A stretch of 64,000 nt of DNA from an uncultured delta proteobacterium (GTDB taxonomy: Bacteria > Myxococcota_A > Polyangia > Polyangiales > Polyangiaceae): positions 1,056,001-1,120,000 of the forward strand of contig CAWAIF010000003.1 of the NCBI GenBank assembly GCA_963782055.1, written 5' to 3'. The notes below the pieces were generated by a model. It ran no database searches. It was not told the DNA's origin and saw nothing but the letters and a program-made list of their open reading frames with translations. Position numbers and translations under genes: made by a program. Positions 5,202 through 19,220 of this stretch are shown piece by piece. Position 1 is the first letter of the stretch; each line of letters starts with the position of its first letter.

Positions 5202-7372
5202 GTAACCTGCTCGTCCCGCGCGAGGGCGCCGCGGAGTTCCGCAAGCGCTACAAGTGGTTCGCCCTCGGGGTCGTGCTCGCCTTCGGCGTCATCGTCGTGC
5301 GGCTCTTCCAGCTCCAGGTGCTGCAGGGCCAGGACTACGCCGACATGGCCCACGAGAACATCGTGCGGCGCGCCTCCATCGCCACCACCCGCGGCGTCAT
5401 CCTGGACTCGCAGGGCAAGGTGCTCGCCTCCAGCCGCCCGGCCTACAACGTGATCGTCGTGCCCGGCCGCGTGCTCCCGAGCGCCGTCGCCGGCCGCCGG
5501 CCGAGCAGCGTGGCCGACGCGCCGGACACCTGGCCGAAGATCGCCGAGACGCTCCGCCTCAACCCGGACGAGCGCCAGCGCACCGAGGCGCGCTTGCGTG
5601 CCGCGTGCGTCGGGGCCTCCTGGCGGGACGCCCCCGAGGTGCGACGCCACTCCCCGTGCTGGCGCGCCATCCTCCTGCGCGAGGACGTCTCGCGCGACAT
5701 CGTCGCCGAGCTGAAGGAGCACGCCGCCGAGCTCACCGGCGAGCGCGTCGCGTCCGCCCCCGTCCGCTACTACCCGTACAAGAGCCTCGGATCGCACATG
5801 CTCGGCTACGTGCACGAGCTGGACGCGGAGACGCTCGCGAAGGTCAAGCCCAAGGGCTACGAGGACATGACCCCCGAGGAGCGGCAGAAGGTCAACCCGC
5901 TCGGCTACGAGGTGGGCGACACCCTCGGCGCGACGGGCGTCGAGCGGGCGTGGGAGAGTCGTTTGCGGGGCCAGCGCGGCTGGGAGAAGCGCGTGGTGGA
6001 CGCCCACGGCCACTACCACTCCGGCCCGGAGACCGAGCGCCTGCTGGATGACCCGAAGCGGCAGGAGCCCATCCCGGGCAACGGCCTGCGCCTAACGGTC
6101 GACATCGAGCTGGAGCAGGCGATCGAGCGCGCCATGCGCCCGCACGTCGCCGGCGCGGTCGTCGTGGTGGACGTCCGCACCGGGCGCCTGCGCGCCCTGT
6201 ACTCCAAGCCGGGCTTCGACCCGAACGACCTCTCCGGCGCCGGCGGCAAGTCGCGCGTGCGCGAGACCTACAAGAAGCTCGCGGCGGACCCCATGCAGCC
6301 GCTGCTCGACAAGACCATCAGCGGCGCCTACCAGCCCGGGTCCACCTTCAAGCCCTTCTCCGCGCTCGCCGCGCTCGAAGACAACCTGATCGATCCGGAG
6401 GACACGCAGCGCTGCGACGGCTACCTCATGTTCGGCCGCCGTATCTTCCACTGCACCCACGTCCATGGCCGCGTGAACATGCACGACGCCATCGCCGCCT
6501 CGTGCAACGTGTACTTCTTCCACCTCGCCGAGACCGTCGGCATGGATCGCATCGCCGAGGTGGCGACCGACTTCGGGCTGGGCCAGAAGACAGGCCTCGG
6601 GGACAACCCGGAGGCGTCTGGCCGCATCCCCACGCGAAGCTGGTACGCGCTGCGCTACCGCGGGCAGTTCCGCCTCGGCTTCACGCTCAACACCGCCATC
6701 GGGCAGGGCGACGCGTCGGTGACGCCCCTGCAGCTCGCCCTGGCCTACGCCGCCATCGCCAACGGCGGCACGGTCTACCTGCCGCAGCTCATCCGCGCGG
6801 TGGAGACGAGCGACGGTGACGTGGTGCAGGACTTCCCGCCGCGCGTCCGCCACAAGGTGCACATCAAGCCGGAGAACCTCGCGCGGGTCGTCTCCGCCCT
6901 CCAGGCCGTCGTCAACGACCCGAAGGGCACTGCCTACGCGGTGCGAGATCCTGCGCTGGACGTCGCGGGCAAGACAGGCACCGCGCAGACCGGTTACATT
7001 CCCGCCAAGGGGGAGGACCCCAAGCTGGCCGCCTTCTTCTCGCGCGACCACGCCTGGTTCGCCGCCTTCTCGCCCTCGAAGGCGCCGGAGATCGCCGTCG
7101 TCGTCTTCATCGAGCACGGCGGCGCCGGCCCCACGCAGGCCGCGCCGATCGCGATGCAGATCGTCCGCGACTACGAGCGCATCGCCGCCTCGCGCGGGCC
7201 GAAGCCCAAGACCCCGCCGCCGCCACCGCCGAAGCCGGCGGCCGTCGTCCCCGCGCCAACCGCCACGTCGCCGCCCCCGGCCGACGCGGGCGCGACCGCG
7301 ACCACCGCCAAGGACGCCGGCCCCGCCGGCGACCAGGCTCACGTGGCCCCCGACGCCGGAGCCTCGCCGTGA
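5198..7372 (+). CDS. mrdA: Penicillin-binding protein 2 (elongasome transpeptidase)
   Basis: GTG 5198 overlaps the mreD stop. SxxK (STFK), SxN (SCN) and KTG motifs; Pro-rich tail. Confidence 0.95.
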   Translation: MSNLLVPREGAAEFRKRYKWFALGVVLAFGVIVVRLFQLQVLQGQDYADMAHENIVRRASIATTRGVILDSQGKVLASSRPAYNVIVVPGRVLPSAVAGRRPSSVADAPDTWPKIAETLRLNPDERQRTEARLRAACVGASWRDAPEVRRHSPCWRAILLREDVSRDIVAELKEHAAELTGERVASAPVRYYPYKSLGSHMLGYVHELDAETLAKVKPKGYEDMTPEERQKVNPLGYEVGDTLGATGVERAWESRLRGQRGWEKRVVDAHGHYHSGPETERLLDDPKRQEPIPGNGLRLTVDIELEQAIERAMRPHVAGAVVVVDVRTGRLRALYSKPGFDPNDLSGAGGKSRVRETYKKLAADPMQPLLDKTISGAYQPGSTFKPFSALAALEDNLIDPEDTQRCDGYLMFGRRIFHCTHVHGRVNMHDAIAASCNVYFFHLAETVGMDRIAEVATDFGLGQKTGLGDNPEASGRIPTRSWYALRYRGQFRLGFTLNTAIGQGDASVTPLQLALAYAAIANGGTVYLPQLIRAVETSDGDVVQDFPPRVRHKVHIKPENLARVVSALQAVVNDPKGTAYAVRDPALDVAGKTGTAQTGYIPAKGEDPKLAAFFSRDHAWFAAFSPSKAPEIAVVVFIEHGGAGPTQAAPIAMQIVRDYERIAASRGPKPKTPPPPPPKPAAVVPAPTATSPPPADAGATATTAKDAGPAGDQAHVAPDAGASP

Positions 7373-8517
7373 GCGCCGACGGCACCTGGTTCTCCTCCGC
7401 GCGCACCTTCGAAAGGACGCGCGACCAGTTCGACTGGGTCCTCTTCCTGGTCGCCGCGATGCTCGCCGTGGTGGGCGTCGTGAACCTGTACTCCGCGACG
7501 AGCGTCGTGCGCGCCTCGCTCTCCGATCTCTACGTCCTGCAGGTCTACTGGCTCGTCTTCGGCGGCATCTTCGCGACCATCGTCGCCGCCATCGACTACC
7601 GCCACTACGAGCGCCTGGGCTACGCGCTCTACGGGTTCGGCGTGGTGCTCCTGCTGCTCGTCTTCATCCTGGGGCGCGACATCCGCGGCAGCTCCCGCTG
7701 GATCTACATCGGCTCGTTCAGCTTGCAGCCGAGCGAGTTCATGAAGCTGTTCTTGATCATCGCGCTGGCCAAGTATCTCCACAACGATCCCAAGAGCGAG
7801 GGCCGCACCCTGCGCGACCTCGCCATCCCCGCGCTCATCGCCGCGGTGCCCGTGGTGCTCGTGCTCCGCCAGCCGGACCTCGGCACCGCGCTCATCCTGA
7901 TGCTCATCTTCGCCAGCATCTGCGCGATGATGCGCATCCGCCGCCGCACCGTCGCGTGGATCGCCGCCGGCGTCGTGGTCTCCTTCTACCTGGCGTACAA
8001 CTACGGCCTCAAGGGCTACCAGCTCGAGCGCATCACCAGCTTCCTCCACCCCGAGCAGCAGCTCCTCGGCGCCAACTGGCACGCCCACCACGCGCGCGTG
8101 GCCATCGGCAGCGGGCAGTGGCTCGGGGAGGGCTTCATGAAGGGGACGCAGAACCAGTTCCTCTTCCTGCCCGACCAGTACACCGACTTCCCCTTCCCGG
8201 TCTTCGCCGAGGACTGGGGCTTCGCCGGGTCCATGCTGCTCGTCGCCCTGTACGGCTTCCTCGTGCTCTGGGCGGTGCGGGTCGCCGCCACCGCGCGCGA
8301 TCGGTTCGGCGCGGTCATCTCCATCGGCGTCGGCGCGCTCCTCTTCTGGCACGCCTTCTTCAACCTGGGCATGGTCACCGGCCTGCTCCCGGTCGTCGGC
8401 GTCACCCTCCCGCTCTTCTCCTACGGCGGCTCCAGCGTCCTCACGGTCATGATCGGCCTGGGTCTGCTGATGAACGTGTCCATGCGGCGCTACCAGGTCG
8501 CGCCGGGCCGCTTCTGA
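7369..8517 (+). CDS. rodA: SEDS peptidoglycan glycosyltransferase RodA
   Basis: QPSEFMK, QPDLGTA, TDF.F.VFAE, LPLFSYGGSS motifs. Confidence 0.96.
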   Translation: MSADGTWFSSARTFERTRDQFDWVLFLVAAMLAVVGVVNLYSATSVVRASLSDLYVLQVYWLVFGGIFATIVAAIDYRHYERLGYALYGFGVVLLLLVFILGRDIRGSSRWIYIGSFSLQPSEFMKLFLIIALAKYLHNDPKSEGRTLRDLAIPALIAAVPVVLVLRQPDLGTALILMLIFASICAMMRIRRRTVAWIAAGVVVSFYLAYNYGLKGYQLERITSFLHPEQQLLGANWHAHHARVAIGSGQWLGEGFMKGTQNQFLFLPDQYTDFPFPVFAEDWGFAGSMLLVALYGFLVLWAVRVAATARDRFGAVISIGVGALLFWHAFFNLGMVTGLLPVVGVTLPLFSYGGSSVLTVMIGLGLLMNVSMRRYQVAPGRF

Positions 8518-8559: not shown

Positions 8560-10158
8560 TCAGCCGACGATGGGGGCGAGCACCATCGCGAGGGCGGCGA
8601 AGGTCAAGGCGATGGGGCGCGACACCGCCTCGCCCAGCGCGGAGGCGACCAGCAGCGCGAGCGCGGCGCCGGCGACCGCCTGCGCGCCCGCGCCGAACCC
8701 CACGCGAAGCAGCACGCCCGTCGCGCACACCGCCGCGACCACCACGAAGGTGGTCCGCACCCGCGCCCGGAGGCTCGGGCCGCCGCGTACCAGCGCGCCG
8801 AGCACCAGCGCCCCGAGCACCGCCACCGCGACCGCCGGGCGCGCGACGTCGATGCCGCGCACCGCCACGCCGGCGACCGCGCACCGCGTGAGCAGCGTCG
8901 CGTGGTCCGCCGCCGGCGCGTGCATCGTCATCGCCCAGCGCGCGCACGCCGCGGCGCTCACCGCGTCCAGCACCGCCAGCCCCACCGCCAGCGCCCCCAG
9001 CACCGCGCCGACCCGCGCCGCGACGCGCGCGGCCTCGTGCGTCTCTCGCCACGCGTCCGGCTGCGCCCCGGAGGCCACCTGCAGCAGCACCGCCGCGCCC
9101 TGCGCGCCGATCGCCGCCACCACCACGCCGAAGGCGGCCGCGTGCGCCTTGCCCGACCTGGCGGCGACCGCAGCGCTCGCCAGCGCCGCCAGCGCGACGC
9201 ACAGGAAGGACACCACCTCAACGAGCCGCGGCCGCGCCGACGCGCGCGCCACCGAGAAGACGCCCGCCGTCGCCGCGATGCCCGCTGCCCCGCAGAACAC
9301 CAGCACCAGCCAGAGGGATCCGGAGAGGGCCGAGGCCGCCCCCACGATGCCGAAGAGGGTGAGGATGGCGGCGACGAAGAAGGCGCGCGACATGGCCGCG
9401 CCCTCCGTCTCGCGTGGGCCCACCCGCAGCGACGCCACGCCGAACACCGCGGCCACCGCGCCGAGCGCCCGAGCCGCCACCGGGAAGAGCAAGAGCCCCA
9501 GCGCGCTCTCGTAGCCCGGACCGGCCTGCAGCGCCCCCGAGTTCTGATCGAAGAAGTACGCCGCCACGAGCATCGCCGCGCCCGTCTCCACCGCCGCCTC
9601 CGACGAAGGCCGCGCGCGCTCGTCGCCGGAGGCGACCGCCGCGACGCCCGACGCGAACCCCGCGATGAGCCAGGCCACGTGTGGAGCGAGCCGCTGCGGC
9701 GCGGCGAAGGCGCCGGAGACCGCCCAAGCCGCGAAGACGAGCACCGTCAGGCCCGCCAGCGCGCCGAGCAGGTCGGCGAGCGGACCCACGGCCGACGCGC
9801 GCACCGCCAGCTCGAGCGGGCCGCCGTCCGGCGCCCGCGCGGCGGCGGCCCGCGCTGCCCAGTCGCGCAGCGCGCGCGCGAGCGTCGTCACCAGCACGCC
9901 GGCGGCGCACGAGCCGCACGCCCACGCCCCGGCCGCGAGCGCGTCGCGGGCGAAGGGTGTGGGCCCCCGCCCCGCCGCCACGGCCAGCAGCAGCACCGGC
10001 GCGAGTGCCGCGCCCGCCAGCGCGTCGTCGCGGACGGCCCGCGCGGGCACCGGCGGCGCCTCGCCCACGACCGGCTGCTTGCGCAGCGAGGTCGCAACCC
10101 AGCCCAGCCCACCGGCGCCGAGCGCGGTGGCGATCAGCACAGGGGCGATCTCGATCAT
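8560..10158 (-). CDS. Polytopic membrane protein, degenerate homologue of membrane H+/Na+-translocating pyrophosphatase (HppA) lacking catalytic motifs
   Basis: TM segments follow the remembered HppA consensus in order (LLFPVAARALG, FGVVVAAIG, IDVARPAV, GAQAVAG, MVLAPIV). The acidic catalytic loops are absent. Confidence 0.7.
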   Translation of the reverse strand: MIEIAPVLIATALGAGGLGWVATSLRKQPVVGEAPPVPARAVRDDALAGAALAPVLLLAVAAGRGPTPFARDALAAGAWACGSCAAGVLVTTLARALRDWAARAAAARAPDGGPLELAVRASAVGPLADLLGALAGLTVLVFAAWAVSGAFAAPQRLAPHVAWLIAGFASGVAAVASGDERARPSSEAAVETGAAMLVAAYFFDQNSGALQAGPGYESALGLLLFPVAARALGAVAAVFGVASLRVGPRETEGAAMSRAFFVAAILTLFGIVGAASALSGSLWLVLVFCGAAGIAATAGVFSVARASARPRLVEVVSFLCVALAALASAAVAARSGKAHAAAFGVVVAAIGAQGAAVLLQVASGAQPDAWRETHEAARVAARVGAVLGALAVGLAVLDAVSAAACARWAMTMHAPAADHATLLTRCAVAGVAVRGIDVARPAVAVAVLGALVLGALVRGGPSLRARVRTTFVVVAAVCATGVLLRVGFGAGAQAVAGAALALLVASALGEAVSRPIALTFAALAMVLAPIVG

Positions 10159-10210
10159 GGCGGCGGCCGGCGGGGACGCGCGGCGACACGCGCGCCGGGC
10201 GCGCGCCGTG

Positions 10211-10831
10211 TCACTTCTTGGCGCCCTGGAGCACCATCAGGTGGAACTTGTTGAACTCGTTCTGCCCGAGGGTGAAGAGCACCTCGACGAGCAGACGGTA
10301 GGGCGTGCCGGCGTCGGCGATGACGATCGCCTCGCTGCCGCTGGCGTCCTTGCCCTGCGCCTGGCGGATCTGCCGGTCGGTGTCGCGCCAGGCCTTCACC
10401 GTCTGGCCGAGCTTGGTGATGTACAGGTCGTTCGGCCCGCCCCGCTTGTACTTCGCCTCCACGCCGTGCGTGGCGTCGGCGGGCACGTCGACGACGGCCT
10501 CGTCCTCGACCAGGATCTTGCTCTTGGAGATGATGATGGGGACGCCTTCCTCGGCGGCCTCCGTCGTCAGGACGCTCTTCGGCATCTGCAGGTCCTTCGA
10601 CTGCGGGAGCGACGCCGAGGACTGGCTCATGCTCTTGAGCAAGAACACCAGGATGATGGTCATCATGTCCATCATCGCGGTGATGTTGAGGAAGTTGATC
10701 TCCGGCTCGAGGGCCCGGCGGCGGACCTCCTTGCGGAGCATGCGCTTGTAGGTGGCCATGCTCGCCGGCTTCTGGCGAGGCTGCGGAGCGAGCTGACCCG
10801 GCGGCGGTTGCTGAGGTCCGTGCGGTTGCAT
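10211..10831 (-). CDS. aglS: ExbD/TolR-family motor subunit, AglS-like
   Basis: LNITAMMDMMTIILVFLL with the conserved TM Asp; IADAGTPY periplasmic motif; third gene of a TolQ-TolR-TolR triad. Confidence 0.75.
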   Translation of the reverse strand: MQPHGPQQPPPGQLAPQPRQKPASMATYKRMLRKEVRRRALEPEINFLNITAMMDMMTIILVFLLKSMSQSSASLPQSKDLQMPKSVLTTEAAEEGVPIIISKSKILVEDEAVVDVPADATHGVEAKYKRGGPNDLYITKLGQTVKAWRDTDRQIRQAQGKDASGSEAIVIADAGTPYRLLVEVLFTLGQNEFNKFHLMVLQGAKK

Positions 10832-10835
10832 GGGC

Positions 10836-11390
10836 TTACTTGGCGAGACCGAAGTTGACGTCGGGGAAGAGTGCCTTGCCGTCCGACGTGTCGCGGAGCG
10901 CGTCGATGGTGCTGATGACGGCCTGGTACGGGATGTTCGGGTTGGCGCTCACCGTGACCTGCGTCTCGTCGGCGAAATCCGCCGAGGAGTTCTTCAGGCT
11001 CTGGGCGCACTTGTTGAGGGCGGCGTAGTCGTACTCGTCCCCCCTCTTGGCGATGGCGAGGCCAGGGCCGACGTCATGACAGCCCGGGGCCACGTTGCCG
11101 CCCTTGGCCTTGAGGCTGAAGCCGTCGTTGACGATGAGCACCGCCAGGCCGAGCGTCGGCTTCGTCGGCGGGCGCGCCGCCGACCCACCCGCCTTGGGCG
11201 GGAAGGTGTCGATCGTCGCGGTGAAGGTCACCGTCACGGTGGCGAGCACGAACATCAGCACGTTGGTGATGATGTCGAGGAAGGGGACGATGTTGAGCTC
11301 GCCGCCCTCCTCGTCCGGGGACATCTCCGTCGGCGCGGAGAGCCTGCGGATCTTGCTCCGCTGCGCGGCGCTGAGCTTTTCCTCCGCCAT
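10836..11390 (-). CDS. aglQ: ExbD/TolR-family motor subunit, AglQ-like
   Basis: GELNIVPFLDIITNVLMF with the conserved Asp; PYQAVISTID motif. Confidence 0.75.
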   Translation of the reverse strand: MAEEKLSAAQRSKIRRLSAPTEMSPDEEGGELNIVPFLDIITNVLMFVLATVTVTFTATIDTFPPKAGGSAARPPTKPTLGLAVLIVNDGFSLKAKGGNVAPGCHDVGPGLAIAKRGDEYDYAALNKCAQSLKNSSADFADETQVTVSANPNIPYQAVISTIDALRDTSDGKALFPDVNFGLAK

Positions 11391-11490
11391 CAGCGACCCC
11401 GACTCACGGTCCGTGAATCAATCCCACCCGACGCGCGGCGGAGGGCCCGCGCGGGGAGGGACGGCGCGCGCCGCCCCTGCGACGCGTCAT

Positions 11491-11521
11491 GAGAGGGATG
11501 TGAATTCATTCACATCCTCTC
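11491..11521. repeat. AT-rich inverted repeat abutting the aglR-like stop codon
   Basis: GGATGTGAA(11496-504)-TTCA-TTCACATCC(11509-17), extendable to GAGA/TCTC with a one-base bulge. Confidence 0.75.
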
Positions 11522-12215
11522 AGTAGCCGCCGGGGCGGGTCTGGATCGTGAGGAGGTTGAAGACGCGCTCCTGCGTGGCGTCCAGGTCGTGCTGAATGTT
11601 CTTCGAGCGCTGGTGCAGGATGAGGTGGGCGATCATGCACGTGACGGCGATGCCGAGGCCGAACGCCGTGTTGTACATGGCCTCCGCGATGCCGTTCGCC
11701 AGGATGCGCTGCTTCTCGGCCTGCGAGAGGCCCTGCGCGGCGACGGCGCCGAAGGTGTGGATCAGACCGAGCACCGTGCCGAGGAGGCCGACGAGGGTCG
11801 CGATGTTGGCCAGTGACCAGAGGGAGCCGACGCGCTTCTCGACGGCGGGCTTCAGCTCGCCGATCTTCTCGCTCATCGCCGCGTCGATCTCGTCGGGGCC
11901 CTTGTTGGCGTGCGTGAGGCCCGCCTTCACGAGCTGCAGCGTCGGGTAGTCGCCCGCGTCGCACAGCTTGATCGCGCGGTCGATGTTACCCGCGGTGACG
12001 AGCTTCTTGACCTGCGCGAAGAACTCCTTGGAGTTGACGCGGTACTTCGTGAGCTGGAAGGCCGCCCGCTCGATCACGATGGCGATGACGACGGCGCTGA
12101 CGACGAGGTTGATGGAGAGGAAGGTCGGGTTCTGCTTGAACGCCTCCATCAACCCGTTGCTATTGCCACTCGTCTCCGCTGCTGCAGGGGCCCCACTCAG
12201 GAGAGCAACGAACAT
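11520..12215 (-). CDS. aglR: MotA/TolQ/ExbB proton-channel subunit, AglR-like
   Basis: ATG 12215 with AAAGGAG RBS. LWSLANIATLVGLLGT and GIAEAMYNTAFGL motifs. Confidence 0.8.
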   Translation of the reverse strand: MFVALLSGAPAAAETSGNSNGLMEAFKQNPTFLSINLVVSAVVIAIVIERAAFQLTKYRVNSKEFFAQVKKLVTAGNIDRAIKLCDAGDYPTLQLVKAGLTHANKGPDEIDAAMSEKIGELKPAVEKRVGSLWSLANIATLVGLLGTVLGLIHTFGAVAAQGLSQAEKQRILANGIAEAMYNTAFGLGIAVTCMIAHLILHQRSKNIQHDLDATQERVFNLLTIQTRPGGY

Positions 12216-12884
12216 CCCCGACGCTCCTTTCGAACTCGATTCACTCGACTGCGCACCCCGCGATTGCCGCGAGGGACAAGGTTTTCTTCTTGATGCGACA
12301 CGCGACATCGACGCCCATCGAGCGCGGTGCAGCGCGTCGCGAGGCGACCAGGTTTTGCGACGATACAGCCTCGCGATCGGCGAAGTCAACGACACCACTG
12401 GGCCAACCCGCATCCCGACCCGGCTGGCTCGACTTTGAGCGGGCTGGATTCCATGTACATCAAAAAGTTAGACAAACACACGATAACTGTAAGTTTTTTC
12501 GTTCCCGATCAAGCTGCTCAGGCGACGAATTTCACCCAAAGTCTATTGACTCTCTTCGGTCTGACCCTGCATGCTGGCTCGGCGCGTGCCCGCTCGCTTC
12601 GTGCGATCCGGGCCAAGCATCTCTCACCAACTCAGCGGGAGAGCGAAGACCGACCCGGGCACCTTTCGTCGTACGAGCTTGCGTCGCCTCTTCGCGTTCA
12701 GATAGTCTCCCATCGCTTCGCTATTCTGCCCCACGACGTTTCGCTTCCGCACCTGGCATGCGAACCGACCAAGAGAGAGATCGTCGCAACGTTCCGGGGC
12801 TTGACTTCACCAAGGTCTGACGCGCTCAAACGCTACGCGCCCGAGTCGATGAACGAAGGGCACGGTTGAGGAGGACGATATCCA

Positions 12885-13538
12885 ATGGCTGCGATCTGGA
12901 AGCACTTCAGGGACGGTGGATGGGGCATGTACCCCATCGTTTTGTGGTCGATTCTGACCATCGGTATCATCATCGAGCGCGCCCTCTACCTGTTCGGCTC
13001 GTCGATCAACAAGGACGTGTTCCTTGCGACGATGCAGAAGTGCATCCTCGCGGGTGACGTGGCGAAGGCGGTGAAGATGTGCTCCGCCGCCAACGCGCCG
13101 CTCGCGCGCATCGTGCAGGCGGGCCTGGTGAAGGTGAACCGCCCGGACGAGGAAGTTCAGGCGGCCATGGACGAAGCGGCGCTCCGCGAGATCCCGAAGA
13201 TCTCCAAGCGCACGGGCTTCCTCGCCCTCCTCGCGAACCTCGCGATGCTCTCCGGTCTGCTCGGCACCGTGTCGGGTCTGATCCAGAGCTTCGGCGCGGT
13301 CTCCGGAGAGAGCGTCGACCCGAGCCAGAAGGCGCGCATCCTCGCCGAAGGCATCTCCGAGGCGATGAACTGCACCGCCTTCGGCCTCATCGTCGCCATC
13401 ATCGGCCTCATCGGCTTCGCCGTTCTCAACGGCAAGACGCAGAGCCTCGAGGACGACATCAACGAGTCCAGCGTGCAGGTGCTCAACCTGGTGGTGACCA
13501 ACCGCCAGAAGGTGAACCTGGGCGCGGTCCAGGGCTGA
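12885..13538 (+). CDS. MotA/TolQ/ExbB proton-channel subunit (second triad)
   Basis: GGWGMYPI, GLLGTVSGLI, GISEAMNCTAFGL; GAGGAGG RBS. Confidence 0.93.
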   Translation: MAAIWKHFRDGGWGMYPIVLWSILTIGIIIERALYLFGSSINKDVFLATMQKCILAGDVAKAVKMCSAANAPLARIVQAGLVKVNRPDEEVQAAMDEAALREIPKISKRTGFLALLANLAMLSGLLGTVSGLIQSFGAVSGESVDPSQKARILAEGISEAMNCTAFGLIVAIIGLIGFAVLNGKTQSLEDDINESSVQVLNLVVTNRQKVNLGAVQG

Positions 13539-13543
13539 TTCAA

Positions 13544-13583
13544 CCTCACACCCCCCTGACCCCCTCTCCGGAAGGAGAGGGGG
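13544..13583 (+). repeat. REP-like palindromic element, copy 1
   Basis: CCTCACACCCCCCTGA-CCCCCTCTCC-GGAA-GGAGAGGGGG. Confidence 0.75.
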
Positions 13584-13599
13584 CTCATGAGAGGATGCC

Positions 13600-14178
13600 A
13601 TGGCAGGCGTAGACGTAGGCGGAGGCGGCGGCGGCGGACGCAAGAAGCTGGACTCGGAGATCAACATGATCCCGTTCATCGACTTGCTCATGGTGACCAT
13701 CTCCTTCCTCCTCATCACGGCGGTGTGGTCACACATGGCCCGCATCAACGCGGACGCCCAGGTTCCCGGCCCGCCTCGCCCTGACACCGAGGTGAAGCCG
13801 AAGGAGCCGGAGAAGATCCTGCACGTGGAGATGCGCTCTCCGGACAAGTTCGTGCTGGTCTGGAAGCAGGGCGCCCAGGTCGTCAACTCGATCGACGTGC
13901 CCCGCAAGGACGACCTTCAGGTCACCAACGGGGCGAAGAAGATCCGCTACCCGGACCTCGCGAAGAAGATCGAGAGCGAGTGGAACAACTCGGGCTCGCA
14001 CCGCGACCCGACGGACACGAAGCTGGACCAGGCGGTCCTGCACACCGACAACGACACGCAGTACGTCTACCTGATCGGCGTCATCGACGCGATCTACCAG
14101 ACGCACCGCAAGCTGAACCTGCCGAGCGGGAAGACGGAAGAGATGCCCGCCTTCAACGTCACCTTCGCGGTGAACTGA
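13600..14178 (+). CDS. ExbD/TolR-family protein
   Basis: EINMIPFIDLLMVTISFLL with the conserved Asp. Confidence 0.92.
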   Translation: MAGVDVGGGGGGGRKKLDSEINMIPFIDLLMVTISFLLITAVWSHMARINADAQVPGPPRPDTEVKPKEPEKILHVEMRSPDKFVLVWKQGAQVVNSIDVPRKDDLQVTNGAKKIRYPDLAKKIESEWNNSGSHRDPTDTKLDQAVLHTDNDTQYVYLIGVIDAIYQTHRKLNLPSGKTEEMPAFNVTFAVN

Positions 14179-14194
14179 GCCGAGGACCCGAGAG

Positions 14195-14737
14195 ATGCCG
14201 CTTCACGAGCCCGGCCGACGCCTGATGCACTTCATCCCGTTGCCCTACGTCACCAAGAAGGTGGTGGGGCACGGCGGACGCAACGTCAACGCCGGCCTGT
14301 CGCTGACGTCGATGATCGACTTCCTCATCGTCGTCGTCGTCTTCCTGCTGATGACCTTCGCCGCGTCGGGGCAGACGCCCATCGCCAAGGGCCTCCACCT
14401 GCCGCAGGCGGAGAACACCCTGGACATGATCGACGCACCGATGGTCGCCATCAACGGCAACCAGATCCTGGTGGACGGCGCGGCCGCGGGCAACACGCAC
14501 TCCATCGAGGACAGCAAGCGCCTGCAGCGCATCGAGGAGCTGTTCAACGTCCTCAAGGGCAAGCGCGAGGTCTGGCGGCAGCTTCACCCGGGCAAGGACT
14601 TCCCCGGCGTGGTGGTGCTCCAGGTGGACCAGGACGTCCCGGCGGTCGTGGTGAAGAGCACCTTCCAGACCGCGGCCTTCGCCGGCTACCCGAACGTCAG
14701 CTTCATGGTCAACCAGCTGCCCAAGTCGCACCACTGA
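14195..14737 (+). CDS. ExbD/TolR-family protein
   Basis: LSLTSMIDFLIVVVVFLL with the conserved Asp; LQVDQDVP motif. Confidence 0.92.
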   Translation: MPLHEPGRRLMHFIPLPYVTKKVVGHGGRNVNAGLSLTSMIDFLIVVVVFLLMTFAASGQTPIAKGLHLPQAENTLDMIDAPMVAINGNQILVDGAAAGNTHSIEDSKRLQRIEELFNVLKGKREVWRQLHPGKDFPGVVVLQVDQDVPAVVVKSTFQTAAFAGYPNVSFMVNQLPKSHH

Positions 14738-14811: not shown

Positions 14812-15837
14812 ATGCCTGCACCGCCCCCGCCGAAGAAGAAGCCCGGACTCCCCGCGATCTACGAGGGCCGCGAGAAGCGCAAGAAGGGCAGCTTCAGCCG
14901 GCCGACGAGCAGCGTCTGGCTGGTGGTGCTGGGCGGGCTCGTGGCGTCGCTGCTCGCCTATCACTTCGTCTCCAGCCACCAGCTGGAGAGCGCGCGCGGG
15001 GCGCTCCTCGCCAAGCAGCGGGCGGTGGACACCACGGTCGGCGTCGAGTGGGCGCCGCTGCGCGACCGGATCGAGAAGTTCGTGACCGAGCAGTCGGGGG
15101 CCTACGCGGGCGACATGGTCGACCCTGCGGCGCGGCAGTGGGACTTCCGCGAGCAGCCGGGCATCTACCTGCGGCTGGAGCTGAAGGACGCGGCCACGCC
15201 GGAGGCCATCCGCGCGGCGGCGGGAGACTCGCTCAAGGACGCCTTCGCCGCGTGCCTTCTCAAGACCGAGAACCCGGGCCTCGCCGCCGGCGTGCCCGAC
15301 GCCAGCACCTTCCCGGAGCAGCCGTGGAACCTGCGGCAGGCATACGCGTCGACACGCATCCTGACGCCGGCGTGGGTGTCGGAGGTGAAGGCCGCCGAGG
15401 ACCCGCTGCGCCTTCGCGTCTTCCAGCAGCAGTACGAGAAGGCGGAGTCGATGGAGATCCCCGAGGCGATCCGCATCATCAAGCAGGCGCAGTTCTTCCT
15501 GCTGGTGCTGGACGAGCCCGCGGCCGAGGGGAAGGCCGCGGAGGCCCCCGCGACCGCCGACGCCGGGGCGACGGGGCTGGAGGCGCTGGAGCTCGTGCCC
15601 CACTTCGCGCGGGTGTACGTGCTCGACCTGCGCGACAACCACGAGATCCTCCGCCTGCGAAGGATGGCGGAGGGGAAGTTCTTCTTCACGGGGCGCCCCG
15701 CCAGCGACCCGGAGACGGTCGATGCCGTGAAGCGGCAGGTGAACAACTGCGCGCTCGCGCAGGACGTCCGCCTGGCGATCGCGCCGCCGCCGGCGCCGGC
15801 AGAGAGCGACGGCGGCGCGCCGGAGGCCGCACCCTGA
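14812..15837 (+). CDS. Hypothetical single-pass membrane-anchored protein
   Basis: Basic N-terminus, one TM helix, natural amino-acid composition and GC3 bias. Confidence 0.8.
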   Translation: MPAPPPPKKKPGLPAIYEGREKRKKGSFSRPTSSVWLVVLGGLVASLLAYHFVSSHQLESARGALLAKQRAVDTTVGVEWAPLRDRIEKFVTEQSGAYAGDMVDPAARQWDFREQPGIYLRLELKDAATPEAIRAAAGDSLKDAFAACLLKTENPGLAAGVPDASTFPEQPWNLRQAYASTRILTPAWVSEVKAAEDPLRLRVFQQQYEKAESMEIPEAIRIIKQAQFFLLVLDEPAAEGKAAEAPATADAGATGLEALELVPHFARVYVLDLRDNHEILRLRRMAEGKFFFTGRPASDPETVDAVKRQVNNCALAQDVRLAIAPPPAPAESDGGAPEAAP

Positions 15838-16464
15838 TCAGCGCAGGGTGTCGCCAACGTCGACGGCGTGCCCGCCGAAGATCTGCTGCCACGCCACGAC
15901 GAAGCTGACGACGAACGCGCGCTGCTCCGGCGTGGACGGGTCGGCGCCGGAGAGGGCGCCGTCGCTCCAGCGCAGCGTGGCGTGGACGCCGAGCAGCGGC
16001 CCGCTCGCGCGCGGGAGCAGAGGAAACTCCAGGCCCAGGCCGAAGGAGAGGCCGCCCACGCTGGCGAAGCCGCGGCCGGGCGGCTGCGCGGCGAAGGCGC
16101 CGAGCTCGAGGGCGAGCGAGTCGATGAGCAGGTCCACGCGCGGGCTGCCGAGCTCGTGGCCGGTGAGCCACCGGCCCAGAAAGAGCGGGCGCAGCTCGAG
16201 CCCGCCGGCGAGCACGCGCGCCGGCGCGGCGTCGCCGCCGAAGCCCTCCTCGTAGGTGAGGAATATACCTGCACTCTGCAAGTATCGCAGGCGGAGGTCG
16301 GCCGCGCCGCGCGGGCCTCGCGCGCCGGCGACGACGCCGAGCGCCCCGCGAATGGCCATGTCGCCGTCGATGCGGCCGTACGTCGTGTCGGCCGCGGCGT
16401 GCCGGGCCGCGCCGGCGTCCATCAGCGTCATGGCCGCGGCCAGGAGCGCGTCAGCGGGGAACAT
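15838..16464 (-). CDS. Hypothetical exported protein, possibly a small outer-membrane beta-barrel
   Basis: Signal-like N-terminus and alternating beta-strand pattern (DLRLRYL, GLELRP, GLGLEFP); overlaps the HD gene stop. Confidence 0.7.
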   Translation of the reverse strand: MFPADALLAAAMTLMDAGAARHAAADTTYGRIDGDMAIRGALGVVAGARGPRGAADLRLRYLQSAGIFLTYEEGFGGDAAPARVLAGGLELRPLFLGRWLTGHELGSPRVDLLIDSLALELGAFAAQPPGRGFASVGGLSFGLGLEFPLLPRASGPLLGVHATLRWSDGALSGADPSTPEQRAFVVSFVVAWQQIFGGHAVDVGDTLR

Positions 16465-17752
16465 CGTCCGTCAGCCTCCGGGTGATCTCCTCCCGGAGCT
16501 CCGGCGCGAGGATCAGCCGCACGCGCGACAGCTCCTCCCCCGCCAGCCGGGCCAGGAGGAAGGACACCTCGCCGAGCGGCCGCGCCGGGCCCTTCGCGTA
16601 GACGACGAGCGGCTCCTGACCGCCCTCGAAGGGGACGTCGCTCGCCACGTCCAGGTCGACGTAGACCTCCGGCTCCAGACCCTGCTCGGCGGCGACCTCG
16701 CGCGCGAGGGCGAGGGCCTTCAGGCGCCCCTCCGCCGTGGCCTGATCGCCGAAGAGCTCCAGCGTCTTGAAGAGGGCGCGGCGCCGCACGCGGCGGGCGA
16801 GATCGGCCAGCGGGGCGTCCTTCGCTCCCTCCCACGCGTGCATCGTGACGGTGAGCAGGGCGTCGTCCAGCTCCAGGTAATCGCCGAGCGGCACCTCTTG
16901 CCCGTGGGCGGCGAGCTCGATCACCCGGGGCACGGCCGGGAGTCGCGCGCCGTCGCGGACGAGGCGCGCCGCGCGCCCGAGGACGGCGCGGATCATCCAC
17001 TCCGCGGCGCGCGTCGCCTTGTGGAGGTAGACCTGCTGGAACATGAAGAGACGCGAGACCAAGAACGCCTCGATCGCCGGGAGGCCCTTCGCGCCGTCGA
17101 TGGCGAGCGAGGGCGCGCGCTCGGGATCCGCCGCGGGGGCGAAGCGCAGGCTGCGCAGCAGCCAGTCCAGGTCGAACACGCCGTAGCGGACGCCCGTCGC
17201 GTGGGCGTCGCGCAGCAGGTAGTCGCAGCGGTCGACGTCGAAGGTGCCGCTCACCGATCGCGCCAGGTAGGGCAGCGGGTGCTCGCCGCGCACGAGCGCC
17301 GCGACGCGCCCGGGCAGGCCCCCGTCGCGCGAGGCGAGGATCTGGTGCACGCTCGTCGACGGGTCCAGGAGGATGCGCTCGGTCCACTGCTCGTGGTGGG
17401 GGATGCCCGGGATGGCGTCCTCGAAGAGGTGCGAGAGCGGACCGTGGCCGAGGTCGTGGAGGAAGGCGGCGGCGAGCGCCTCCTCCGCGGTGTCGCTGGT
17501 GATCTGCTGCCAGAAGGGGAGGTCGCCCTGGATCGCTCGCAGCCGCGCGACGAGCTGCTTCATCACGAAGGCCGCGCCCACGGCGTGGGCGAAGCGCGTG
17601 TGCTCGGCGCCGGGGAAGGCGTACGACGCGACGCCGAGCTGCCGCACGCGGCGCAGCCGCTGGACCTCCGGCGTGTCCATGAGGCGCTCGATGAGCCGCT
17701 CCTCGTCGGCCTCGAAGGAGACGAGTCCGTGGATGGGGTCGCGCAGGATCAT
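16451..17752 (-). CDS. HD-domain phosphohydrolase (SAMHD1/dNTP triphosphohydrolase-like)
   Basis: Start ATG 17752 inside track ORF. RDPIHG, QRLRRVRQLG, EHTRFAH, LHDLGHGPLSH, DVDRCDYLLRD, VYLHK motifs. Confidence 0.93.
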   Translation of the reverse strand: MILRDPIHGLVSFEADEERLIERLMDTPEVQRLRRVRQLGVASYAFPGAEHTRFAHAVGAAFVMKQLVARLRAIQGDLPFWQQITSDTAEEALAAAFLHDLGHGPLSHLFEDAIPGIPHHEQWTERILLDPSTSVHQILASRDGGLPGRVAALVRGEHPLPYLARSVSGTFDVDRCDYLLRDAHATGVRYGVFDLDWLLRSLRFAPAADPERAPSLAIDGAKGLPAIEAFLVSRLFMFQQVYLHKATRAAEWMIRAVLGRAARLVRDGARLPAVPRVIELAAHGQEVPLGDYLELDDALLTVTMHAWEGAKDAPLADLARRVRRRALFKTLELFGDQATAEGRLKALALAREVAAEQGLEPEVYVDLDVASDVPFEGGQEPLVVYAKGPARPLGEVSFLLARLAGEELSRVRLILAPELREEITRRLTDDVPR

Positions 17753-19083
17753 GGGGCGCGCGTCTCCGCGACGGTGCCGTCGTCCTCGTAGACGCGCACG
17801 CGCAGCGCGGGGGCGCTCTGCGCGATGTCGGCGAAGGTGGCGATCTTCGCCGGGCCGCCCAGCGTGCGGGCGGCGTGCCACGAGGCGGCGAAGGGTGCGG
17901 CGGCCTCCCCCGCGGTGTCGATCGCCCAGGCGAGCGGCTCGCTCGGCTCCAGCAGGATGACGCGCGTGCCGAGCAGGTGCTTGTCCAGGCCGACCCGCGC
18001 GCACCGCGCGGCCGGCTCCTCGCAGCCCACGTACTCCACCGTCGGCACGAGGCCCCTGCGGATCAGACGGGCCCGCCCGTTCGCGAGGGCGACGGCGCCG
18101 GCGTCCGCGGCGACGACGCGCCGGCCCGCGAGCGCCGCCGCCTCCGCCGTCGTGCCGCTCCCCGCGAAGAGGTCCACCACCACGCCGTCCTCGGGCGAGG
18201 CGCAGCGGACGATGCGGTCGAGCAGCGCCAGCGGCTTCTGGGTCGGATAGCCGGTGCGCTCGGAGGGCGGCGCGTGGCGCAAGGGCGGCACGTCGTTCCA
18301 CAGCGTGTCGACGCGACGCTCGCGGCACCAGCGCCCCTCGTCGTCCTTCACCATGAAGTACTTGATGTAGACGCGGCCGGAGGCGGTGCGCAGCACGCGC
18401 CCCTCCTTCTCCAGCCTGGCGATGGATGCGTCGGTGTAGTCGCCGCGCGGCGCGGAGGTGAAGGGCCGGCCCTCGTCGTCGAAGCGGATGGCGCGCTCCT
18501 CGATGGGCTCGAGCCGGGTCGGCGGCCGCAGCTTCGCCGCCGGCCCGCCGTAGACCAGGAGCGTGTCCAGCGTACGGCCGAACTGTCCGCTCGCCGCCTG
18601 CCGGCCGAGGTTGGGCGCGCGCCGCCACACGATCTCGTTCTTGAAGGCGTCGCGCCCCATGATCTCGTCCAGCACGACCCGCACGAGGTACGCCGAGCGC
18701 CAGTCGAGGTGGACCCAGAGCGTGCCGTCCTCGCGCAGCAGCCGCGCCGCGGCCTCGAGGCGCGGCGCGAGCATGTCGAGGTAGGCGCCCACGCCGCCGT
18801 TCTTCCCGTTCCACCGGTCCTCGTAGGCGAGCGAACGGCGCGTGCGGCCGTCGGCCACGCCGTCCATGCGCGCCTCGGCGACGTAGTCGGTCTGCGATGC
18901 GTAGGGTGGGTCGACGTAGACGAGGTGCGCGCGGACGTCGCGCTCGTCGAGCAGCGCGGCCGTGTCGAGCGCGTCGCCGACGAGCCAGGTCACGCGCGGG
19001 TCGCCGCGCTCCCAGAGGCGCGCGGGCTTCGGCGACGGAGCGGCGCCGGGGTCCCACGCGCGTCCCTCCCACGCCAGACGCAT
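17749..19083 (-). CDS. Site-specific DNA methyltransferase (N6A/N4C, beta class, Mod-like)
   Basis: Catalytic DPPY near the N-terminus; GYPTQKP and DLFAGSGTT near the C-terminus; ATGA overlap with the HD gene. Confidence 0.92.
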   Translation of the reverse strand: MRLAWEGRAWDPGAAPSPKPARLWERGDPRVTWLVGDALDTAALLDERDVRAHLVYVDPPYASQTDYVAEARMDGVADGRTRRSLAYEDRWNGKNGGVGAYLDMLAPRLEAAARLLREDGTLWVHLDWRSAYLVRVVLDEIMGRDAFKNEIVWRRAPNLGRQAASGQFGRTLDTLLVYGGPAAKLRPPTRLEPIEERAIRFDDEGRPFTSAPRGDYTDASIARLEKEGRVLRTASGRVYIKYFMVKDDEGRWCRERRVDTLWNDVPPLRHAPPSERTGYPTQKPLALLDRIVRCASPEDGVVVDLFAGSGTTAEAAALAGRRVVAADAGAVALANGRARLIRRGLVPTVEYVGCEEPAARCARVGLDKHLLGTRVILLEPSEPLAWAIDTAGEAAAPFAASWHAARTLGGPAKIATFADIAQSAPALRVRVYEDDGTVAETRAP

Positions 19084-19220
19084 GGGGTCGCGCCGGCGCG
19101 CCCGTCGGTGGCGGGCGTGGACCGAGGGGGATCGCGCGGACACGCGGGCATGGTAGCGCAAACGTCTCGCCGGGGGGGCCGTGCGGTCCCGGCTCGAAAA
19201 GGGTGTATGCTGCCAAGGTC

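Follow-up and report, generated by a model that had tools for sequence, protein, structure and literature searches.

A membrane pyrophosphatase stripped of its catalytic loops and kept behind a proton-motor operon in Polyangiaceae

The window, a 64,000-nucleotide stretch of DNA from an uncultured delta proteobacterium of the Polyangiaceae, carries on the minus strand at 8560–10158 an open reading frame with an ATG start, which encodes 532 amino acids with 16 predicted transmembrane (TM) helices and lacks the cytoplasmic catalytic loops of a membrane pyrophosphatase (mPPase). We refer to the product as the pseudo-mPPase. The frame starts 52 nt past the stop of an ExbD-family gene at 10211–10831 (minus strand) and ends 42 nt from the convergent rodA (7369–8517, plus strand; PF01098, E = 3.4e-92). 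The latter is the last gene of an mreB-mreC-mreD-pbp2-rodA run, of which only rodA was domain-scanned, the others being named from their translations. The original prediction had described an intact 532-residue frame 52 bp past an aglS-like stop on the same strand, with no obvious terminator in between. The coordinates were borne out and a search of the 52 nt spacer (10159–10210, minus strand) for a terminator-like site found none; there is no conserved hairpin and folding is no better than that of shuffled sequences (z = −0.17). An artefact or shadow reading frame was ruled out, since homologues in many genomes share these deletions and GC3 is 0.96.

The ExbD-family gene, exbD2 (PF02472, E = 2.9e-11; best match in a second Myxococcus cluster, L203), closes an operon that also comprises a first ExbD/TolR-family gene (10836–11390, minus strand; PF02472, E = 7.6e-10) and a MotA/TolQ/ExbB gene (11520–12215, minus strand; PF01618, E = 3.4e-25), the true start of which may be the ATG at 12152. 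Divergent from it at 12885–14737 on the plus strand is another ExbB-ExbD-ExbD cluster, the likely AglRQS orthologue. AglR, AglQ and AglS are 245, 162 and 194 residues long (Table 1 of PMC3169522) and AglQ has an Asp at position 28 (available text of PMC3858216). Myxococcus loci with these lengths and this Asp match the plus-strand cluster better for all three genes, with an ExbB identity of 57% versus 40% for the minus-strand cluster; they were found with an alignment of the plus-strand type and the 80/80 tally is thus not independent. For the minus-strand ExbB, the best Myxococcus match lies in L203 (E = 2.4e-46 versus 8.4e-33 for aglR), the three genes of which match the minus-strand set best. 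We take L203 to be M2 because the available text of PMC3858216 calls MXAN_3003-5 the only additional complete set in M. xanthus. These best hits suggest that the pseudo-mPPase follows a paralogous M2-type motor and not AglRQS, for which the operon had originally been taken. M2 is described as dispensable for motility and sporulation in M. xanthus (PMC3858216 and PMC3169522, parts available), so a gliding role for the pseudo-mPPase does not follow.

Two complete ExbB-ExbD-ExbD motors lie back to back at 10211–14737, an arrangement that is conserved throughout the family and also occurs in three further families of the order (L120–L122). A reduced genome of 1.8 Mb (G032, locus L059) retains the M2-type operon at 71–85% identity together with the start of an AglR-type gene, with exbD2 76 nt from rodA, and this retention suggests a housekeeping envelope role for these motors. 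Following the aglS-like gene are a 341-residue frame with an N-terminal hydrophobic stretch (14812–15837, plus strand) and, facing it, a 208-residue frame (15838–16464, minus strand), both with no Pfam or NCBIfam match. Further on, frames resembling a DNA methyltransferase and an HD-domain phosphohydrolase, judged from translations only, occupy 17749–19161 and the end of the long frame 16451–19216 (both minus strand).

The relationship of the pseudo-mPPase to mPPases is remote at the level of single-sequence comparison. A Pfam scan returned no match, PF03030 included, and neither the single protein nor the profile A2 had a significant match among PDB sequences. NCBIfam NF001953 matches residues 218–304 (E = 2.2e-6) with a score of 26.4 bits, below the curated cut-off of 783, which intact orthologues at the same locus exceed with 1018 bits. 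An ESM Atlas search gave a best score of 0.77 to clusters without names and is a lead only. Two database searches yielded full-length short homologues of 460–545 residues at 27–43% identity. HHalign comparison of a profile of 23 short homologues with the intact syntenic HppA (L076) gave a probability of 99.9% (E = 6.6e-34), colinear over residues 1–457 of the pseudo-mPPase.

The AlphaFold2 model, calculated from the short-homologue alignment (pLDDT 93, pTM 0.94), has 16 long helices and a short extra helix at residues 419–428. VIA-align places it on the Vigna H+-PPase 5GPJ with Z = 26.3 and an r.m.s.d. of 3.2 Å over 467 residues, the next unrelated chain having Z = 10.4; in Foldseek, ranks 1–36 have E ≤ 0.001 and all are mPPases among the matches listed. 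The model thus shares the two-ring fold of 16 helices with the K+-independent NF001953/PF03030 mPPases (Vigna radiata 5GPJ, Pyrobaculum aerophilum 8B37, Thermotoga maritima 4AV3). Z scores to solved mPPases are 26.3 and 22.7, the helices are colinear and NF001953 is the closest NCBIfam model. The similarity to mPPases proposed at the outset, down to the nine quoted HppA-like segments, all of which occur in the translation in the order given, was thereby confirmed. The frame descends from an NF001953-type mPPase behind the M2-type ExbB-ExbD-ExbD operon of Polyangiaceae and, as modelled, retains the 16-helix fold. It belongs to the mPPase family by descent and fold, not by function. Two intact mPPases are encoded elsewhere in this genome, which answers the earlier question of a separate intact hppA.

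Relative to L076 there are nine in-frame deletions of 10–49 residues, located at the cytoplasmic ends of helices 2, 5-6, 9-10, 11-12, 13-14 and 15-16. Cytoplasmic loops and helix ends have lost about 230 residues, in agreement with the earlier view that the PPi/Mg motifs had been deleted and not just mutated. We compared 26 functional positions of the hydrolytic centre, coupling funnel and ion gate, taken from the available text of PMC6882861 with three added here and with numbering transferred through L076. The pseudo-mPPase retains one of the 26, namely Glu191. The acidic and basic residues of the hydrolytic centre on helices 5, 6, 11, 12, 15 and 16 are deleted or replaced, and none of the coupling-funnel and ion-gate positions (5.50, 6.50, 6.53 or 6.57, 11.50, 12.50, 16.50) is kept. 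Glu191 itself aligns to position 6.58, one off the gate glutamate; it is present in 14 of the 23 alignment rows, with proline in six, same-genus relatives among them. The six inner helices that carried the hydrolytic centre remain in the model, although shortened. mPPases are homodimers formed through TM10, TM13 and TM15, with communication between subunits (PMC6882861, part available), and here TM10 lacks its N-terminal half and TM13 its C-terminal part, taken by the deletions that follow residues 304, 315 and 457. Judged from its sequence, the pseudo-mPPase has neither a PPi/Mg site nor the residues of the coupling funnel and ion gate. From mPPase biochemistry, a protein with these losses should neither hydrolyse PPi nor pump by the known mechanism, and hydrolysis coupled to H+ or Na+ pumping is predicted to be absent.

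What has been gained is a loop between TM12 and TM13, residues 401–441 (8836–8958, minus strand), with Cys405 and Cys426. Both cysteines are present in 23/23 A4 rows, which are short and 635-residue forms, and are invariant across four genera; intact, half-degenerate and full-length dead forms lack the pair. The other well conserved segment is the TM6–TM7 loop at residues 201–220 (9499–9558, minus strand), the most conserved 20-residue block of the short family; this and 401–441 are its two most conserved blocks. The corresponding loops close the exit channel in the Thermotoga mPPase (PMC6882861, part available). By homology, both would face the periplasm and flank the exit channel, and Cys405 and Cys426 may form a disulfide on the periplasmic side. 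When compared with the intact form, the degenerate classes have TM7-8 among their best preserved parts (0.45/0.41 in dead forms versus 0.24–0.35 for the other outer helices), with the lineage-specific Glu3, Trp79, Arg230 and Arg258. Conservation of the inner helices does not exceed that of the outer ones. The conservation of TM7-8 and the added periplasmic cap point to a binding surface, but folding alone could explain both.

The two closest pairs have pairwise dN/dS values of 0.13 and 0.14; eight more distant pairs gave 0.31–0.64, though the method used yields too low a dS when GC3 is high. Codon models of ten short genes gave 0.09 (GY) and 0.19 (MG), with 0.04–0.12 for the neighbours ExbD1, ExbD2 and RodA. 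Given saturation in the longer tree of the short gene, its true dN/dS is probably about 0.1–0.4, and the suggested dN/dS comparison thus came out against neutral evolution. Of 23 DNA indels in five pairs, 19 have a length divisible by three, and the other four form compensating pairs. Two sequences with frameshifts that are likely sequencing errors (G004, which has a frameshift also in rodA, and P0012) were excluded from A2, A4 and the rate estimates. A simple pseudogene is ruled out by the dN/dS values and the frame-keeping indels. This is a real gene, kept in frame by relaxed purifying selection and loosely constrained. Its rate of evolution is several times that of the motor genes, with 37–41% identity to two relatives whose ExbD and RodA are at 74–87%. 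The composition has drifted to GC-rich codons (GC3 0.96; GC2 0.61 versus 0.38–0.46) and 151 of the 532 residues are alanine.

The profile A2 matches 103 of 251 family genomes and an exbD2 orthologue is found in 238 of the 251, a tally in which alone G263 is counted. We read 60 loci around exbD2 and then 20 more. An intact NF001953 enzyme follows exbD2 in genera g98, g63 and g101, with all 26 functional positions (6/6 proteins). The 635-residue form follows it in genus g22 and the short form in g1, g60 and g73, whereas other Polyangiaceae have nothing related there. Elsewhere a full-length dead HppA does so in 31 of the 32 loci examined in its clade (11/12, then 20/20, the last 20 mostly from genera already known as carriers). 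The median number of positions kept falls from 22 in half-degenerate forms (n = 14) to 11 in full-length dead forms (n = 10), 6 in the 635-residue forms (n = 2) and 1 in the short forms (n = 21). At this one Polyangiaceae locus, decay has run in a series from intact through half-degenerate, full-length dead, 635-residue and 460–540-residue forms to loss, and the pseudo-mPPase stands at its end.

The classes differ in their surroundings. The motif-dead HppA proteins of about 700–730 residues behind the same operon (L069, L071–L073, L075, L077–L082, L211–L230) have dN/dS of 0.04–0.11 and spacers of 100–620 nt, which could hold a promoter. The HppA orthologue of the large-genome clade (L083–L090, L096; g67, g105 and kin) is half-degenerate and lies in inverted orientation about 2–4 kb downstream of the operon, and some half-degenerate orthologues are unlinked, on other contigs. 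The sister family f11 (L244, 2397–4499, plus strand; L245) has a dead HppA of about 700 residues; the stretches retrieved around it contain no motor gene, and in L244 a divergent-type mPPase is found two genes away.

A quick tree (SH-aLRT only, long branches, midpoint root) has at least three separately accelerated lineages leaving the short-branched intact enzymes; it omits six rows, namely two duplicates of genome copies, three close relatives and one mis-started fragment. The operon tree divides the carriers of short and 635-residue forms between two positions, with many non-carriers around them, and this implies repeated loss; within the short clade the gene and operon trees are congruent. 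A profile search recovered both positive controls and detected no short-type copy in 43 of 44 close non-carrier relatives, with up to 32 candidates scored per genome, so that not found does not equal absent. The single match, of 64 residues with E = 0.007, was taken as chance. For the metagenomic homologues P0010 and P0003, two scans for genomic context found no locus, and synteny for P0002–P0013, P0018 and P0020 is known only where they are identical to genome copies. Other mPPases are frequent, with a PF03030 match in 48 of 50 genomes; the carriers G130 (96% complete) and G138 (91%) have no other mPPase detectable with PF03030 or NF001950.

In all 15 sampled genomes of g1, g60, g73 and g22 the copy lies right behind exbD2 (three copies are cut by contig ends or a likely sequencing frameshift), and the spacer to the short or 635-residue gene is 14–52 nt in ten of the 12 measured. 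An RNA-library contig of 190 nt (10112–10301), which may be DNA, bridges exbD2 and the start of the frame. Four shallow RNA runs gave no contig over the body of the frame and almost none over rodA, although contigs cannot show absence. The pseudo-mPPase is not always inherited with the motor, since exbD2 is near-universal in the family and 43 of the 44 close relatives have no detectable copy; in three close non-carriers exbD2 is just 30–76 nt from rodA. The synteny check suggested originally was therefore answered in part: the short form does follow exbD2 in every carrier, but the operon is not aglRQS and other degenerate copies are inverted or unlinked. Carrier-specific positions in ExbB, ExbD1 and ExbD2 number four, with four in the reverse control, and so show no excess in a comparison of low power with few independent lineages.

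Other genes are found at the same site. Unrelated co-directional frames, several lipoprotein-like, lie 13–39 nt after exbD2 in L044, L049, L053, L054 and L057; the position after exbD2 collects passengers. Nine of 80 named AglR-type loci, namely L194, L193, L201, L202, L198, L184, L197 and L199 (all from about 5900) and L138 (from about 2800), have a divergent-type mPPase after the third motor gene on the same strand, 70–80% identical to the NF001950 protein of this genome and with motifs intact where read. In G019 (L063) a divergent-type mPPase sits behind the M2-type operon, and that of G025 is about 6 kb downstream. Genes from two mPPase subfamilies have thus ended up behind Agl-type operons on more than one occasion.

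We lean, with somewhat better than even confidence, towards a dispensable, non-catalytic membrane scaffold that is co-transcribed with the M2-type motor by inheritance. The ancestral pump may have supplied proton-motive force alongside the motor genes, a role suggested by gene order, and may also have had a binding role. With other mPPases present in most genomes, this copy would be free from catalysis; those paralogues would have taken over the enzyme role, after which catalysis decayed in several lineages and binding stayed. In the short lineage the protein would be a compact inner-membrane scaffold that contacts a putative envelope partner through the outer helices TM1 and TM7-8. A periplasmic cap, composed of the TM6–TM7 loop and the new disulfide-stapled TM12–TM13 hairpin, would also contact this partner. 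Because the position is inherited, the gene would be read through from the motor operon, as a dispensable accessory and not a core motor part. Against such a scaffold are the weak selection (37–41% identity where neighbours have 74–87%, dN/dS of 0.31–0.64 in distant pairs), the drift of the composition, the many close relatives in which the gene is undetectable and the chance that TM7-8 conservation is purely structural.

Nothing here identifies the pseudo-mPPase as part of the motor, and the motor-subunit reading is weak. The idea that it is a fourth subunit exapted by the motor was not supported, given the relatives with no copy, the intact-enzyme ancestor, the copies away from the operon, the unrelated genes at the same site and the lack of co-variation. 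Transferred from AglRQS to the M2-type motor, this idea becomes a dedicated accessory subunit or regulator that would adjust the motor by binding to the ExbB ring or to the periplasmic domains of ExbD. It would account for the invariable place behind exbD2 (15/15 carriers, short spacers in 10/12), the congruent trees, the bridging RNA-library contig, the full-length dead form in the same position (11/12 and 20/20 loci, mostly of known carrier genera) and the second mPPase subfamily behind Agl-type operons in other lineages. We nevertheless regard it as unlikely. The operon is intact with no such gene in 43 of the 44 close relatives, the position was inherited from the intact enzyme and unrelated genes occupy it at 13–39 nt. 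Half-degenerate copies are inverted about 4 kb away or on other contigs, the f11 dead copies have no motor gene in the stretches fetched, the carrier-specific motor positions do not exceed the reverse control and the gene evolves faster than the motor genes. A slowly decaying remnant with no useful job, under selection only for frame and membrane compatibility until outright deletion, is more doubtful still, as is its corollary that in-frame upkeep avoids harmful truncated products of a read-through transcript. The stepwise decay, the many separate losses on the operon tree, the fast evolution, the GC-driven composition and the frame body devoid of RNA-library contigs in four shallow runs (contigs being unable to show absence) all fit such a remnant; dN/dS values of 0.13–0.14 in close pairs, a gained cysteine pair invariant across four genera, a confident and complete 16-helix model and a full-length dead form in 31 of 32 clade loci at dN/dS 0.04–0.11 do not.

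An ungated leak would waste proton-motive force, and this counts against a passive ion channel or periplasmic sensor in which the inner ring would lie open after loss of the cytoplasmic lid, with the cysteine-stapled loop as the gate of the former exit channel. The most conserved blocks do correspond to the loops that close this channel in the Thermotoga mPPase (PMC6882861, part available), the shortened inner helices remain and Glu191 is found in 14 of 23 rows. However, the canonical ion-gate residues are all gone, Glu191 is one off the gate glutamate and is proline in 6/23 rows, and conservation is no higher in the inner helices than in the outer ones; we consider such a channel or sensor improbable. 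Least probable of all, and by our estimate very improbable, is a role as the dead partner of an active mPPase, which it would regulate. The dimer biology of mPPases (PMC6882861, part available), the active paralogues in this genome and a relatively well kept TM13 would suit it, but the TM10 and TM13 deletions take most of the listed dimer-interface residues and the carriers G130 and G138 show no other mPPase with PF03030 or NF001950.

The scaffold that we favour differs from known systems in several respects. Unlike NF001953 enzymes, the pseudo-mPPase has lost the catalytic loops and part of the dimer interface and has a new two-cysteine TM12–TM13 loop. The upstream operon is ExbB-ExbD-ExbD like AglRQS (M1) and MXAN_3003-5 (M2) of Myxococcus xanthus, but these are described as three-gene sets, and no mPPase-like gene follows aglS in nine named loci of the Myxococcaceae/Archangium group. 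As in pseudoenzymes generally, where dead paralogues serve as scaffolds or regulators, catalytic residues are lost while the fold is under purifying selection; here, unlike in pseudoenzymes generally, the whole catalytic half of an ion pump has been deleted. The original prediction knew of no description of such a subunit. Likewise, the literature searched, mostly listings and the starts of abstracts with few subscription journals among them, showed no catalytically dead or loop-deleted mPPase and no link between mPPases and motors. In the available main text of a 2026 preprint (10.64898/2026.08.28.747804), neither pyrophosphatase nor MXAN_3003 is mentioned.

mPPases are known as enzymes and pumps. 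The locus provides a natural deletion series from an intact pump to a bare 16-helix scaffold, and selection has maintained it in several separate lineages. This implies a non-enzymatic job for this mPPase lineage and shows, in prediction, which parts of the fold can be removed with no collapse. Stripped mPPases of this kind are invisible to Pfam and are annotated as hypothetical. A bolder proposal, which we hold to be unlikely, is that the pump scaffold has been recycled more than once as an accessory that binds the second Agl-type motor through the disulfide-stapled periplasmic cap. If true, the repeated occurrence of mPPases behind Agl-type operons would reflect physical coupling of pump and motor, with a local supply of protons, and the binding part would have outlived the enzyme. 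The pseudo-mPPase may also offer a handle on the function of the M2-type motor. That a few genera of soil myxobacteria retain such a gene behind a proton-motor operon suggests that this family of pumps has a second job, one that is not enzymatic.
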